A stretch of DNA of 7,904 nucleotides, taken from the IMG/VR virus record IMGVR_UViG_2531839127_000025. One strand, written 5' to 3'. Shown piece by piece: positions 1 through 7,904 of the stretch; within the stretch, counting starts at the first letter, position 1, and each line of letters begins with the position of its first letter. The notes beneath the pieces are model-generated. The model was not told the DNA's origin. It worked only from the letters and a program-made list of their open reading frames with translations, and did no database searches. The translations under genes were made by a program, and so were the position numbers. This stretch comes from a virus (taxonomy: Duplodnaviria > Heunggongvirae > Uroviricota > Caudoviricetes).

Positions 1-87
1 GTGCTGGATTACATTGACGCGGTGACGGCAATAGATACCAGCACCGCGCCTGATATTATTTGGCCTGTATTCCCTGAGACTGATTAA
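1..87 (+). CDS. Tail-fibre assembly protein (Tfa), C-terminal end only; 5' end lies outside the window
   Basis: Frame 1 from position 1 reads VLDYIDAVTAIDTSTAPDIIWPVFPETD with a TAA stop at 85-87. The DTSTAPDI-WP tail resembles the conserved C-terminus of lambda/e14-type Tfa proteins as I recall them. Position immediately before an invertase fits a tail-fibre/Tfa module. Confidence 0.65.
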   Translation: MLDYIDAVTAIDTSTAPDIIWPVFPETD

Positions 88-316
88 CCTCAATCAGTAT
101 TGGTTCGCCTTTCTCATTAATTGTTAGCTCCATGCCCTGAGGAATTTCTGTCATAGTAAAAAACCAGTTGTCCTCCGGTAATTCAATAGCCCCGGTCACG
201 TCATGAAGACCGGGGATTACTTCAGTCAAAGTAACTGGATTAAACAGGCGCACAATAAACCCTCCATGAAAAAGCATTTGATGATGGTCTGCCGTCGTAC
301 ATCTGGCAGCGGGCAT
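56..316 (-). CDS. Small 86-aa ORF in the silent cassette, downstream of the alternative fibre segment; possible non-canonical fibre chaperone, function unknown
   Basis: Minus-strand ORF with ATG at 316-314 and an in-frame TAA five codons upstream, so it cannot be longer. It converges on and overlaps the + strand Tfa end (56-87), as in convergent Sv-U / U'-S'v cassette layouts. No recognisable Tfa C-terminal motif and no strong Shine-Dalgarno. Confidence 0.35.
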   Translation of the reverse strand: MPAARCTTADHHQMLFHGGFIVRLFNPVTLTEVIPGLHDVTGAIELPEDNWFFTMTEIPQGMELTINEKGEPILIEVNQSQGIQAK

Positions 317-595
317 AAAAGCCGGTATTTGTTACCTGATCATCCACGATCATTGAAACGTGAACATTATTAGGTGTGCTCTCGTAATCCGTTCTTATTC
401 TTTCTGCGATACTGATAAAACGTGAAAGTTTAGGCAGTGCAATTGGGTAAACGACTTTAGCCAGTCCATTATCATTAGATCCACCGGTTCCAAATACTTC
501 TATTGCACCATCTGACCAGCGTACCCATGCACCATTGGCATTAGCTCCTCGCTGAATGACATATCTGGCTTCTCCCAAACCAACGTTTATGAAAA
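240..595 (-). CDS. Alternative (silent-orientation) tail-fibre C-terminal variable segment; start-less, would be fused to the constant fibre N-terminus after inversion
   Basis: Minus-strand frame is open from the crossover site down to a stop at 237-239 (ORF track 240..623; the ATGs at 623-618 lie outside the invertible segment and are probably not used). The frame runs straight through the 26-bp crossover site, encoding ...FINVGLGEA.... Gly/Asn/Ser/Trp-rich composition is typical of fibre tips. Assignment is by architecture, not by recognised homology. Confidence 0.45.
570..595. other. Serine-invertase crossover site (gix/cix/hix-like 26-bp imperfect palindrome)
   Basis: TTCTCCCAAACC-AA-CGTTTATGAAAA: two 12-bp half sites in inverted orientation around a central AA dinucleotide, following the TTnTCnnAAACC..GGTTTnnGAnAA pattern of hix/gix/cix sites. 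Lies 55 bp upstream of the invertase ATG and inside the fibre-segment reading frame. Confidence 0.7.
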
Positions 596-3080: not shown

Positions 3081-3356
3081 ATGAACAAAGAAAATGTGAT
3101 TACCCTGGACAATCCGGTCAAGCGTGGTGAGCAGGTTATCGAACAGGTCACGCTGATGAAACCCAATGCCGGGACGCTGCGCGGTGTCAGTCTGGCTGCG
3201 GTCGCAAACTCCGAAGTCGATGCACTGATTAAGGTGCTGCCGCGCATGACGGCACCGATGCTGACCGAGCAGGAAGTCGCCGCGCTGGAACTGCCTGACC
3301 TTGTGGCGCTGGCCGGTAAGGTGGTCGGTTTTTTGTCGCCGAACTCGGTGCAGTAA
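3081..3356 (+). CDS. E: Tail assembly chaperone (P2 gpE-like), zero-frame product
   Basis: 91-aa ORF ending ...VVGFLSPNSVQ*. Sits directly upstream of the tape-measure gene, the conserved chaperone position. Contains the slippery heptamer near its 3' end. Confidence 0.9.
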   Translation: MNKENVITLDNPVKRGEQVIEQVTLMKPNAGTLRGVSLAAVANSEVDALIKVLPRMTAPMLTEQEVAALELPDLVALAGKVVGFLSPNSVQ

Positions 3357-3508
3357 CGTTCCCGAAAAATCTGTCGGTCGATGAGCTGATGGCGGATGTG
3401 GCAGTGATATTTCACTGGCCGCCATCAGAACTGTATCCCATGAGTCTGACCGAACTCATCACATGGCGCGAAAAGGCGCTCCGGCGAAGCGGAAACACGA
3501 ATGAGTAA
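3081..3508 (+). CDS. E': Tail assembly chaperone frameshift product (P2 gpE+E'-like), made by a programmed -1 shift at 3329-3335
   Basis: Slippery heptamer T TTT TTG at 3329-3335 in X XXY YYZ phasing relative to the E frame. The -1 frame is open from there to a TAA at 3506-3508, encoding ...VAELGAVTFPKNLSVDELMADVAVIFHWPPSELYPMSLTELITWREKALRRSGNTNE, and overlaps the T start codon at 3501. Confidence 0.8.
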
Positions 3509-5948
3509 CAATGTAAAATTACAGGTATTGCTCAGGGCTGTTGACCAGGCATCCCGCCCGTTTAAATCCATCCGCACAGCGAGCAAATCGCTGTCGGGGG
3601 ATATCCGGGAAACACAAAAATCACTGCGCGAGCTGAACGGTCACGCATCCCGTATTGAGGGATTTCGCAAGACCAGCGCACAGCTCGCCGGGACTGGTCA
3701 TGCACTTGAAAAGGCACGGCAGGAGGCCGAAGCCCTTGCCACACAGTTTAAAAACACTGAACGTCCGACCCGTGCTCAGGCGAAAGTGCTGGAATCCGCA
3801 AAGCGTGCGGCGGAGGACTTACAGGCGAAATATAACCGCCTGACGGATTCCGTTAAGCGCCAGCAGCGGGAACTGGCCGCTGTGGGAATTAATACCCGCA
3901 ATCTTGCACATGATGAGCAGGGACTGAAAAACCGTATCAGTGAAACCACCGCACAGCTTAACCGGCAGCGTGACGCGCTGGCGCGTGTCAGTGCGCAACA
4001 GGCAAAACTTAATGCAGTAAAACAGCGTTATCAGGCCGGAAAGGAACTGGCCGGAAATATGGCCTCGGTGGGCGCTGCCGGTGTGGGGATTGCGGCGGCG
4101 GGAACGATGGCCGGAGTTAAGTTGCTGATGCCCGGTTATGAGTTTGCGCAGAAAAACTCAGAATTGCAGGCCGTGCTCGGAGTGGCAAAAGACTCCGCCG
4201 AAATGACCGCACTACGCAAACAGGCGCGCCAGCTCGGCGACAATACCGCCGCCTCGGCGGATGATGCGGCCGGTGCACAGATAATCATCGCGAAAGCGGG
4301 TGGGGATGTTGATGCCATTCAGGCGGCAACGCCGGTCACGCTGAATATGGCGCTGGCGAACCGCCGCACGATGGAAGAAAACGCCGCCCTGCTGATGGGG
4401 ATGAAATCCGCCTTTCAGCTTTCAAACGATAAGGTCGCTCATATCGGGGATGTTCTCTCCATGACGATGAACAAAACCGCCGCCGATTTTGACGGCATGA
4501 GTGATGCGCTGACCTATGCCGCACCTGTGGCAAAAAATGCCGGTGTCAGCATTGAAGAAACCGCCGCAATGGTCGGGGCGCTGCATGATGCAAAAATCAC
4601 AGGCTCAATGGCGGGGACGGGAAGCCGTGCCGTGTTAAGCCGCCTGCAGGCACCGACGGGAAAAGCATGGGATGCACTCAAAGAGCTTGGAGTGAAAACC
4701 TCAGACAGCAAAGGAAACACCCGGCCAATATTTACCATTCTGAAAGAAATGCAGGCCAGTTTTGAGAAAAACCGGCTCGGTACTGCCCAGCAGGCTGAAT
4801 ACATGAAAACTATTTTCGGGGAGGAGGCCAGCTCAGCCGCCGCCGTGCTGATGACTGCCGCCTCAACCGGAAAGCTGGACAAACTGACCGCTGCGTTTAA
4901 AGCCTCAGACGGGAAGACCGCCGAGCTGGTAAATATCATGCAGGATAACCTCGGCGGTGACTTTAAGGAGTTTCAGTCCGCTTATGAGGCGGTGGGGACA
5001 GACCTGTTTGACCAGCAGGAAGGCGCACTGCGTAAGCTCACTCAGACGGCCACAAAGTATGTGTTAAAACTCGACGGCTGGATCCAGAAAAACAAATCAC
5101 TGGCGTCAACCATCGGCCTCATTGTCGGTGGCGCGCTGGCGCTTATTGGCATCATCGGTGCCATTGGTCTTGTAGCCTGGCCGGTTATCACCGGCATCAA
5201 TGCCATTATCGCGGCAGCAGGCGCAATGGGGGCAATCTTCATGACGGTTGGCAGTGCTGTTATGACGGCCATCGGGGCGATTAGCTGGCCGGTTGTGGCC
5301 GTGGTGGCCGCCATTGTCTCCGGGGCGTTGCTTATCCGTAAATACTGGGAGCCTGTCAGCGCATTCTTTGGCGGTGTGGTTGAAGGGCTGAAAACGGCAT
5401 TTGCGCCGGTGGGGGAACTTTTCACGCCACTTAAGCCGGTGTTTGACTGGCTGGGCGAAAAGTTACAGGCCGCGTGGCAGTGGTTTACAAACCTGATTGC
5501 CCCGGTTAAAGCCACACAGGACACCATGAACCGTTGCCGTGACACGGGCGTCATGTTCGGGCAGGCGCTGGCTGACGCGCTGATGCTGCCGCTTAATGCG
5601 TTCAACAAACTGCGCAGCGGTATTGACTGGGTACTGGAAAAACTCGGTGTTATCAACAAAGAGTCAGACACACTTGACCAGACCGCCGCAAGGACTCATG
5701 CCGCCACGTATGGCACCGGTGGTTACATTCCGGCGACCAGCTCTTATGCAGGCTATCAGGCTTATCAGCCGGTCACGGCACCGGCTGGCCGCTCTTATGT
5801 GGACCAGAGTAAAAACGAATATCACATCAGCCTGACGGGTGGTACTGCGCCGGGGACACAGCTTGACCGCCAGTTACAGGATGCGCTCGAAAAATACGAG
5901 CGGGATAAACGTGCGCGCGCCCGTGCCAGCATGATGCATGACGGTTAA
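3501..5948 (+). CDS. T: Tail tape measure protein (P2 gpT-like)
   Basis: 815-aa ORF directly after the E/E' chaperone pair. N-terminal region is rich in charged, coiled-coil-like residues; a long Gly/Ala/Ile hydrophobic segment is encoded around 5098-5340. Confidence 0.93.
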   Translation: MSNNVKLQVLLRAVDQASRPFKSIRTASKSLSGDIRETQKSLRELNGHASRIEGFRKTSAQLAGTGHALEKARQEAEALATQFKNTERPTRAQAKVLESAKRAAEDLQAKYNRLTDSVKRQQRELAAVGINTRNLAHDEQGLKNRISETTAQLNRQRDALARVSAQQAKLNAVKQRYQAGKELAGNMASVGAAGVGIAAAGTMAGVKLLMPGYEFAQKNSELQAVLGVAKDSAEMTALRKQARQLGDNTAASADDAAGAQIIIAKAGGDVDAIQAATPVTLNMALANRRTMEENAALLMGMKSAFQLSNDKVAHIGDVLSMTMNKTAADFDGMSDALTYAAPVAKNAGVSIEETAAMVGALHDAKITGSMAGTGSRAVLSRLQAPTGKAWDALKELGVKTSDSKGNTRPIFTILKEMQASFEKNRLGTAQQAEYMKTIFGEEASSAAAVLMTAASTGKLDKLTAAFKASDGKTAELVNIMQDNLGGDFKEFQSAYEAVGTDLFDQQEGALRKLTQTATKYVLKLDGWIQKNKSLASTIGLIVGGALALIGIIGAIGLVAWPVITGINAIIAAAGAMGAIFMTVGSAVMTAIGAISWPVVAVVAAIVSGALLIRKYWEPVSAFFGGVVEGLKTAFAPVGELFTPLKPVFDWLGEKLQAAWQWFTNLIAPVKATQDTMNRCRDTGVMFGQALADALMLPLNAFNKLRSGIDWVLEKLGVINKESDTLDQTAARTHAATYGTGGYIPATSSYAGYQAYQPVTAPAGRSYVDQSKNEYHISLTGGTAPGTQLDRQLQDALEKYERDKRARARASMMHDG

Positions 5949-6442: not shown

Positions 6443-7605
6443 TGCTGGATGCACTGACATTTGATGCAGGCAGTACGCTGACGCCGGATTACATGCTGAT
6501 GCTCGACAGCAGGGATATTACCGGCAATATCAGCGACCGTCTGATGAGTATGACCCTGACGGATAACCGGGGTTTTGAGGCTGACCAGCTTGATATTGAA
6601 CTGAACGATGCCGACGGGCAGGTCGGGCTGCCGGTTCGTGGCGCTGTCCTGACGGTGTATATCGGCTGGAAAGGTTTTGCCCTGGTATGCAAAGGGAAAT
6701 TCACCGTTGATGAGGTAGAACACCGGGGCGCGCCGGATGTGGTCACCATCCGCGCCCGGAGTGCAGATTTTCGCGGGACGCTCAATTCCCGCCGTGAAGG
6801 CTCCTGGCATGACACCACGCTCGGTGCGATTGTTGAGGCGATAGCCTCCCGTAACAGGCTGGAAGCCAGTGTCGCGCCGTCACTGGCCGGAATTAAAATC
6901 CCGCACATCGACCAGTCGCAGGAGTCTGATGCAAAATTCCTGACCCGCCTTGCTGAACGCAACGGCGGTGAGGTGTCGGTAAAAATGGGAAAACTGTTGT
7001 TTCTCAAAGCGGGGCAGGGGGTGACGGCCAGCGGTAAAAAAATCCCGCAGGTCACCATCACCCGCAGCGACGGCGACCGTCATCATTTTGCGATTGCTGA
7101 TCGTGGAGCCTACACCGGCGTAACGGCAAAGTGGTTACACACCAAAGACCCGAAGCCGCAAAAGCAGAAGGTAAAACTGAAACGCAAAAAGAAAGAGAAA
7201 CACCTGCGCGCACTGGAGCACCCGAAAGCAAAACCGGTCACGCAGAAGAAAGCGCCAAAAGTACCGGAAGCGCGCGAAGGTGAATACATGGCCGGTGAAG
7301 CTGACAACGTTTTTGCCCTGACCACGGTATATGCCACAAAAGCGCAGGCTATGCGCGCCGCTCAGGCGAAGTGGGACAAACTGCAACGGGGCGTTGCGGA
7401 GTTCTCCATCAGCCTGGCTACTGGTCGGGCAGATATTTACACGGAAACGCCGGTCAAAGTGTCAGGCTTTAAGCGCGTCATAGACGAGCAGGACTGGACA
7501 ATCACTAAGGTGACACATTTTCTGAATAATAGCGGCTTCACGACGTCCCTGGAGCTTGAGGTCAGGCTTTCTGATGTGGAGTACGAAACAGAAGATGATG
7601 AGTGA
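6442..7605 (+). CDS. D: Tail protein D (P2 gpD-like)
   Basis: 387-aa ORF translationally coupled to U. Contains a Lys-rich basic segment (KDPKPQKQKVKLKRKKKEKHLRALEHPKAKP...) encoded at about 7140-7270. Last gene of the F operon in P2 gene order. Confidence 0.88.
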   Translation: MLDALTFDAGSTLTPDYMLMLDSRDITGNISDRLMSMTLTDNRGFEADQLDIELNDADGQVGLPVRGAVLTVYIGWKGFALVCKGKFTVDEVEHRGAPDVVTIRARSADFRGTLNSRREGSWHDTTLGAIVEAIASRNRLEASVAPSLAGIKIPHIDQSQESDAKFLTRLAERNGGEVSVKMGKLLFLKAGQGVTASGKKIPQVTITRSDGDRHHFAIADRGAYTGVTAKWLHTKDPKPQKQKVKLKRKKKEKHLRALEHPKAKPVTQKKAPKVPEAREGEYMAGEADNVFALTTVYATKAQAMRAAQAKWDKLQRGVAEFSISLATGRADIYTETPVKVSGFKRVIDEQDWTITKVTHFLNNSGFTTSLELEVRLSDVEYETEDDE

Positions 7606-7609
7606 TGTT

Positions 7610-7685
7610 TTATTTTATCTATTTGTTTTGTAAGGATAAATTAACTAAAATGGCACCATCAACAAAACCGGAAGAGGTGCTCGCG
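7610..7685 (+). promoter_or_regulatory. AT-rich intergenic region likely holding the ogr promoter and ribosome-binding site
   Basis: AT-rich stretch between the D stop and the ogr ATG, with TTGTTT/TTGTAA and TAAATT/TAAAAT hexamers and a GGAAGAGGTG purine tract 6-15 nt before the ATG at 7686. Exact -35/-10 not assignable by eye. Confidence 0.3.
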
Positions 7686-7904
7686 ATGTTTCATTGTCCT
7701 TTATGCCAGCATGCCGCACATGCGCGTACAAGCCGCTATATCACTGACACGACAAAAGAGCGTTATCACCAGTGTCAGAACGTGAATTGCAGCGCCACGT
7801 TCATCACTTATGAGTCGGTACAGCGATATATCGTGAAGCCGGGAGAAGTCCACGCCGTAAGGCCGCACCCGTTGCCATCAGGGCAGCAAATTATGTGGAT
7901 GTAA
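7686..7904 (+). CDS. ogr: Late-gene transcriptional activator Ogr (Cys4 zinc-finger, Ogr/Delta family)
   Basis: 72-aa product MFHCPLCQHAAHARTSRYITDTTKERYHQCQNVNCSATF... with a CxxC-N22-CxxxxC zinc-finger arrangement, matching Ogr as I recall it. Follows gene D as in P2. The stop codon is the last three bases of the window. Confidence 0.9.
   Translation: MFHCPLCQHAAHARTSRYITDTTKERYHQCQNVNCSATFITYESVQRYIVKPGEVHAVRPHPLPSGQQIMWM

Follow-up and report, generated by a model that had tools for sequence, protein, structure and literature searches.

Classical invertible tail-fibre cassettes of the Din family carry a gene for a full-length tail-fibre assembly protein (Tfa) on both arms. The locus described here raises the question of what the gene is that follows a silent fibre tip when it is much shorter than any such Tfa. 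Three possibilities had been put forward in the initial annotation, i.e., a minimal or new-family fibre chaperone, a remnant of a truncated Tfa, or a gene expressed only after inversion by coupling to the fibre segment. The whole stretch of DNA analysed (7,904 nucleotides, hereafter the window) covers the tail half of a P2-like prophage, and within it is the right-hand half of an invertible tail-fibre cassette of the Pin/Gin type. The genes recognized with Pfam were those for the sheath FI (1303-2493), the tube FII, E, E', the tape measure T, U, D and Ogr. From 56 to 600 the cassette shows 100% identity with E. coli Combat2C1. The wider region is ~91% identical to E. coli TW01221, with 96-99% protein identity for the sheath and the invertase, and the order annotated by PGAP in TW01221 is fibre, 201-aa Tfa, two minus-strand “hypothetical proteins” of 65 and 126 aa, recombinase and sheath. 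Two side observations concern the rest of the window. Near the end of gene E there is a slippery run (GGTTTTTTG, 3328-3336) followed by a start-less frame that matches Pfam Phage_P2_GpE (3353-3508), an arrangement that would fit the classical programmed -1 frameshift of P2 E/E+E'. The window ends with a 72-aa Ogr/Delta zinc-finger late-gene activator (7686-7904), of which a 100-aa ORF starting at a GTG (7602-7904) is an over-extension.

The cassette begins with the 3' end of a full-length Tfa (~201 aa) that belongs to the arm expressed at present; its final 28 codons lie at positions 1-87 of the plus strand. That a plus-strand Tfa is encoded here had already been pointed out, and this end does match positions 107-131 of the 131 of the Caudo_TAP profile (E 2.5e-6). 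The silent alternative fibre tip, Sv', is found at 240-583 on the minus strand (~113 aa counted from the crossover point, with a TAA stop at 240-242), the ATG of its ORF at 623 being fortuitous. It is joined to the 26-bp crossover site of the Gin/Pin/Cin/Hin type (570-595, plus strand, TTCTCCCAAACC AA CGTTTATGAAAA), which encodes LGLGE, the junction peptide common to the silent tip and the active fibres. This site is the single match in the window, none was obtained in 200 shuffles, and its core is identical to the published repeat of the e14 P segment (PMC12529663). The other crossover site belongs to the part of the fibre gene that precedes the window, and it is present in the related loci L001, L002, L014 and L015. 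The serine DNA invertase of the Pin/Gin family follows at 650-1243 of the plus strand (Resolvase E 3.9e-52, HTH_7 E 2.6e-12). Its ORF can be extended by 12 residues (614-649) from an ATG at 614, overlapping the fortuitous ATG of the tip ORF (623); homology and PGAP place the start at ATG 650.

The gene behind the silent tip had been described as an ORF of 86 aa on the minus strand (56-316) starting with an ATG and capped by an in-frame stop. The ORF is present and the stop is where it was said to be (TAA 332-334, five codons 5' of ATG 316), but the true gene has 65 aa and spans 56-253 of the minus strand, from a GTG start at 251-253 to a TAA stop at 56-58. The codon at 253 is exactly where the family starts to be conserved and where the full-length homologues have their N-termini; the window has GTG there and most relatives have ATG. 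Six bases 5' of this GTG is a Shine-Dalgarno sequence, GGAGGG (260-265, minus strand), that is encoded by the conserved ...SWRV... codons of the fibre tip. The 21 codons that extend the ORF to 86 aa (254-316, minus strand) are spurious and code only in the frame of the tip: their pN/pS was 1.08 (neutral) in the small-ORF frame vs. 0.63 (constrained) in the tip frame, and 12 of 30 distinct relatives carry in-frame stops within them. PGAP (NCBI) calls the identical 65-aa CDS in E. coli relatives, and the product is identical to RefSeq WP_001440573.1, annotated as “hypothetical protein.” From the start of conservation, the Shine-Dalgarno site, the pN/pS values and stops of the extension and the PGAP calls, we have therefore revised the gene: it encodes 65 aa instead of 86 and has a strong Shine-Dalgarno. 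The previous length and the apparent lack of a strong Shine-Dalgarno both arose from taking the wrong start codon, since there is indeed none before ATG 316, whereas GGAGGG precedes the true start. Likewise, the overlap with the frame of the fibre segment, given before as 240-316 (77 nt), is reduced to the 14 nt (240-253) by which the start of the small gene overlaps the stop of the silent tip. Both GGAG(G/A)G at equal spacing and the 14-nt overlap are kept in nearly all of ~70 loci.

At the other end, the Tfa of the plus strand and the small gene of the minus strand converge with a 32-nt overlap (56-87), so that the last 10 residues of the small protein are the antisense of the C-terminal codons of the other Tfa. 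Similar tail-to-tail overlaps recur in S164 (20 nt) and L003, leaving no room for a terminator between the arms, and our scan for promoters and terminators around the cassette gave background level only. When the cassette of L001 was inverted in silico, an in-frame fibre of 389 aa ending in this tip was obtained, and the ON junction was found in 31 complete E. coli genomes. The sibling E. coli strains 61 and 64 are identical over 6.2 kb save for an exact inversion of 1658 bp between the crossover sites, and both encode the 65-aa protein of the window. This inversion indicates that the switch is active in natural E. coli isolates and that one of its states puts the small gene directly behind a complete fibre. 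The existence of ON-state genomes favors the proposal that the small gene is expressed only after inversion by coupling to the fibre, and so does the anatomy of the junction (the 14-nt overlap, the Shine-Dalgarno in fibre codons and no promoter-like site on the minus strand). The module formed by the tip and the small gene is mosaic, being identical to Combat2C1 whereas the sheath and the invertase around it match TW01221 at 96-99%. It was also detected beside pinE in ECOR29 (L002), where the prophage has other genes for tail and baseplate (GP46 family, baseplate J/gp47 family, YmfQ), and it therefore moves between unrelated tail types.

The origin of the small protein was not apparent from direct comparisons. 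Pfam gave no match to Caudo_TAP (PF02413) for the 86-aa ORF at E <= 1, and the small protein yielded nothing meaningful when searched against Pfam, NCBIfam and the PDB sequences, only chance matches to OXA beta-lactamases with E ~0.7. BLASTP against the neighbouring 201-aa Tfa detected no similarity, and the N-domains of the two proteins appear to be unrelated. There was a match to phrog_5400 (E 7.9e-25), a family of “unknown function,” in which residues 22-85 of the 86-aa ORF correspond to positions 1-66 of the 145 of the profile, and 81 homologues of the small protein were found in a set of 5.8 billion proteins. A family HMM made from 15 members and searched against 1.84 billion representative proteins recovered mostly proteins of 53-85 aa, but also others of 125-147 aa that matched over their first ~56 residues. 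In the matches of 129-132 aa it was the first 56 residues that aligned, with E values from 7e-12 to 3e-4. Three of these long proteins (P0093, P0099 and P0107) scored 73-98 bits with Caudo_TAP, well above the Pfam cut-off, and their C-termini have the canonical ...WKKYR..L.RVDT..P.WP motif; in P0100 and P0101 the same N-domain is joined to Phage_tail_APC. The comparison of the family with the 128-aa Tfa of Cronobacter phage JK004 by hhalign gave a probability of 97.9% (E 5.8e-13), columns 1-57 being aligned with residues 1-57.

From the HMM and hhalign matches, the small protein is a tip-specific Tfa N-domain cut at the inter-domain linker. It stops 8-9 residues past the N-domain and is devoid of the helical C-terminal domain with the W..YR..L.RVD...P.WP motif, in keeping with the earlier remark that a C-terminal motif of the DTSTAPDI-WP type was absent. 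Like a Tfa, it has a homologous N-terminal domain and is encoded by a gene directly 3' of, and co-oriented with, a fibre tip. It descends from a Tfa but lacks two features that define Caudo_TAP proteins, the profile match and the C-terminal domain. Hence, of the suggestion of a “minimal or new-family chaperone” the first half holds, but not the second, the protein being homologous to the N-terminal domain of Caudo_TAP. The AF2 model of the small protein is all-beta, of moderate confidence (pLDDT 72, pTM 0.36), and matched no PDB fold, TfaMu (5YVQ) included. This is not surprising since the N-domains of Tfa have been described as non-conserved (PMC9608196). Our literature searches found no account of a short Tfa consisting only of the N-domain, and the databases describe these proteins as “hypothetical” or of “unknown function.” Such genes, present as “hypothetical protein” in hundreds of Enterobacterales genomes, could now be renamed.

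The fibre tip that accompanies the small gene is equally characteristic. The AF2 model of the silent tip (pLDDT 80) was compared with Foldseek, and the matches were 4MTM (TM 0.66, rmsd 2.8 A, probability 1.0) and 6CT8, 6CXB, 6CL5 and 6CL6 (TM 0.60-0.63, probability 1.0), so that the tip is predicted to be a head with the lectin fold, like the “foot” of the R1 and R2 pyocin fibres and the head of AP22 gp53. The fold match agrees with the Pfam scores for Gp53-like_C (PF21882), although these are below threshold both in the window (18.4 bits for a cut-off of 24.9, E 0.0033) and in the relatives (18.8 to 23.4 bits). The small gene is almost always located behind such a gp53/R-pyocin-like lectin-head tip, and the tips 5' of it belong to one family throughout (...RGxNANGxWxxWSDG...FSWRVYxAPV). 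The distances between tips and those between partners are correlated (Mantel r 0.58, reached in none of 2000 permutations), a correlation that may come from co-inheritance, i.e., from linkage alone, rather than from co-evolution. The gp53 of AP22, a related head, has been crystallised as a trimer and a chaperone is never mentioned in that paper, which opens the possibility that this type of tip folds unaided.

We have also examined the gene neighbourhoods of the relatives, classifying the downstream genes by tblastn. At least nine lineages of P2-like prophages have no invertase and, between the fibre gene H and the sheath gene FI, no gene other than the small one. Among these sole-partner loci (L006/7/70, L017 from Erwinia aeris, L046, L052/53, L054/55/57, L059 and L069) neither another Tfa nor an invertase is present, and in L006 a terminator-like hairpin with a T-run is located directly 3' of the small gene. 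Other arrangements were also observed. In L003-L005 (4186-5130), an E. coli P2-like prophage is locked ON for this tip and the small gene by the truncation of its invertase; the invertase gene, now without the N-terminal half, lies downstream together with the decayed remains of a second arm. In L047 (1-1300) and L048 there is an invertible P2-like cassette in which each arm consists of a lectin-head tip and then a short N-domain-only gene, of 61 aa (MRFFNP...) and ~71 aa (MWYWNP...), with no full-length Tfa anywhere in the cassette. Among deposited phage genomes, the DNA and protein searches matched only S164 and JK004, of which only S164 has the short form, located in its silent arm. A scan of a collection of species-representative genomes provided only 2 loci, the scans of viral contigs being far more productive. 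Cronobacter phage JK004 (L010, MZ188976), a 94-kb phage, has at 3240-5263 an array of several co-oriented alternative fibre-tip cassettes, with a AACGTTCGTTTAGGCGAAGC-like site before each cassette and a Tfa after only one of them, and it looks like a multi-cassette, shufflon-like fibre switch.

The relationship between short and long forms can be followed in the MWYWNP sister subfamily. Here, one and the same tip subtype (...KGxNANGWYEIYSDGFKRVG...YVAEGY) is accompanied by a two-domain Tfa of 131-132 aa in L078-L086 and by a partner of 61-71 aa in L087-L091. In a neighbour-joining tree of the N-domains short and long forms are interleaved (for example P0092, of 58 aa, with P0093, of 131 aa), and the MRLFNP clade of the window contains short forms throughout. 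Assembly artefacts may account for some of the short entries from metagenomes; the DNA itself was checked for L047, L087 and L090. Given the interleaving in the tree, the C-domain has probably been lost more than once. As the strongly conserved small protein corresponds to the front half only, fibre tips of this kind seem able to do without the conserved rear half of the chaperone. Two ways by which a C-domain might be provided from elsewhere were considered and rejected. One is a split downstream gene, read-through or frameshifting: in the non-invertible loci only 125-330 nt separate the small gene from the sheath gene, and no match to the Tfa C-domain was found there. The other is the sharing of the C-domain encoded by the opposite arm, a gene that becomes antisense to the late operon after inversion; this was also discarded because some loci lack any full Tfa.

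Our preferred interpretation, which we consider likely, is that the small gene is a minimal, translationally coupled Tfa, reduced to the N-domain and expressed only after inversion, whose product would bind the tip and act as a chaperone or cap. The invertase would flip a segment of ~1.6 kb at the 26-bp sites, fusing the Sv' tip in frame to the constant part (Sc) of the fibre gene and placing the small gene directly behind the complete fibre, and the late operon would then transcribe the Sc-Sv' fibre. Ribosomes ending at 240-242 could reinitiate at GTG 253, a possibility that derives from the Shine-Dalgarno in the last codons of the fibre and from the overlap of start and stop. The 65-aa protein would most likely bind the lectin-head tip, as the N-domains of Tfa do, and once bound it might aid the folding and trimerisation of the tip or stay there as a cap. 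Tfa proteins bind the fibre tip through the N-domain, whereas trimerisation is driven by the C-domain (PMC9608196), and the model of North et al. (2019), as presented in PMC9608196, situates the essential role in assembly in the conserved C-terminal domain. This model counts against a minimal Tfa, since the domain to which it assigns the key role is the one missing here. A more general proposal, that the C-domain is dispensable for lectin-head fibres and that an N-domain of ~60 residues, derived by repeated domain loss and maybe virion-bound, is their complete, self-sufficient partner, has in our opinion even chances of being right. If it is, no smaller chaperone or adaptor of tail fibres would be known, and the N-domain would be a convenient module when phages and tailocins are retargeted.

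The most direct alternative to a minimal Tfa is that the small gene is a non-functional remnant, a full-length tfa' minus its C-terminal half that is hitch-hiking with the cassette. The homology confined to the N-terminal half of Caudo_TAP proteins would agree with that, as would a 3' tail that is mere antisense of the last codons of the other tfa and the occasional frameshifted copies. However, only 2 copies in ~70 loci are disrupted (L011 and L077), so that the ORF is kept intact in related cassettes, a point that the initial annotation had left to be checked. One of the two, L011 (E. coli CFSAN061761, 3517-4043), is frameshifted in its silent tip as well as in its small gene, marked as pseudogenes by PGAP, indicating that silent arms can decay in individual lysogens. 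The median dN/dS of the small gene in 40 distinct DNA sequences was 0.136, at saturated synonymous sites, and the pN/pS values of the two shifted frames were 1.2 and 2.0, i.e., purifying selection acts only in the frame of the small gene. The codons used for this analysis (6-56) overlap no other gene. The number of homologues (81) and the selection in this one frame go far beyond what chance would produce. In addition, the start, the Shine-Dalgarno and a length of 57-69 aa are maintained down to ~52% identity over several genera (the short form was found in Escherichia, Enterobacter, Salmonella, Erwinia, with Erwinia aeris, and Intestinirhabdus), and non-invertible prophages have retained it as the sole fibre-adjacent gene. 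The selection analysis largely refutes the idea of a remnant, which we regard as extremely unlikely. A truncated Tfa is correct as the origin of the gene, given the homology to the N-terminal half, a result that the initial annotation had named as refuting its view, but a pseudogene is not (dN/dS ~0.14). A functional small protein without any relation to the fibre, for example a moron expressed in the lysogen, an exclusion factor or a regulator parked beside the fibre gene, would be equally subjected to purifying selection, and the putative nature of the function, the lack of Pfam or NCBIfam annotation and the listing of phrog_5400 as “unknown function” leave some room for it. Nevertheless, the protein is homologous to the N-domain of Tfa, the gene occurs with one tip family only, its start overlaps the stop of the tip and its Shine-Dalgarno is inside the fibre gene. 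Besides, no promoter-like site was found on the minus strand for the silent state, and in P2-like late operons the gene sits at the position of gpG (Tfa). A role unrelated to the fibre is accordingly very unlikely in our view.

A third alternative accepts the association with the tip but not the chaperone activity. The small protein could be a subunit of the virion tip that remains attached to the lectin head once the particle is mature and contributes to the receptor-binding surface or tunes the host range, like the gp38 of T2 or TfaMu on the Mu fibre, with a tip that folds unaided. TfaMu and the Tfa of Ur-lambda have been reported to remain in virions, and the N-domain of TfaMu is bound to the distal part of the fibre (PMC9608196). 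The chaperone of pyocins co-purifies with the fibre, no chaperone is mentioned for the trimeric gp53 head, and the trimerising C-domain seems dispensable here, all of which points in the same direction. On the other hand, the most conserved residues of the small protein (W30, F31, F32, H17 and D18) are more suggestive of a core or an interface than of a receptor surface that varies, and binding and chaperoning are not mutually exclusive. We find a purely structural role rather unlikely, and keep the minimal Tfa as the preferred reading. Lectin-head tips that are transferred to phages or R-type pyocins would have to be accompanied by this gene of ~200 bp. A widespread lineage without C-domain also provides a natural test of whether the N-domain alone suffices for some tip folds.

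The closest known proteins are the 128-132-aa members of Caudo_TAP (JK004 gene_1, QVJ82358.1, and those of the IMG/VR loci L078-L086), which have an N-domain of ~57 residues homologous to the protein of the window and are encoded directly after a gp53-like lectin-head tip. However, in them a P-rich linker leads to a helical C-terminal domain and they score above the Pfam cut-off, whereas the protein of the window stops at the linker. In gp25 of cyanophage Pam3 a small beta-sandwich N-domain is enough to grip the fibre tip (PMC9608196), but this protein was undetected in mature virions and retains the helical trimerising C-domain (PMC9608196). The Tfa of Mu (gene U; PDB 5YVQ), that of lambda and gpG of P2 resemble the small protein in that the gene is downstream of the fibre. 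These classical Tfa proteins are modular, with a variable N-domain dedicated to the cognate tip (PMC9608196; PMC7291167). They differ in their size (175-200 aa), in having a conserved C-terminal domain, proposed to drive trimerisation, and in their larger alpha/beta N-domains. In structure the tip of the window is best matched by the lectin-fold “foot” in which the fibre ends in the R1 and R2 pyocin pairs (PA0620/PA0621; PALES_06171 and its chaperone), and the likeness of their chaperones to the small protein is one of gene position and description, being encoded immediately downstream of the fibre. A good yield of soluble pyocin fibre depends on this Tfa-type chaperone, and the two co-purify (PMC6363177, PMC6116203).

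The cassette as a whole is comparable to the Mu G, P1 C and e14 P segments. As in the Din family, there are a serine invertase and inverted 26-bp sites, one of them in the fibre gene, with both orientations in frame. An adjoining serine invertase, 26-bp sites that encode part of the fibre (LGLGE), two convergent arms each with a tip plus its partner, and the presence of both orientations in nature are common to all of them. In Mu, one copy of Tfa lies on each arm of the invertible G segment. By contrast, the window has an N-domain-only protein on one arm, L047/48 have one on both arms, and the partner genes of the window overlap tail to tail by 32 nt.
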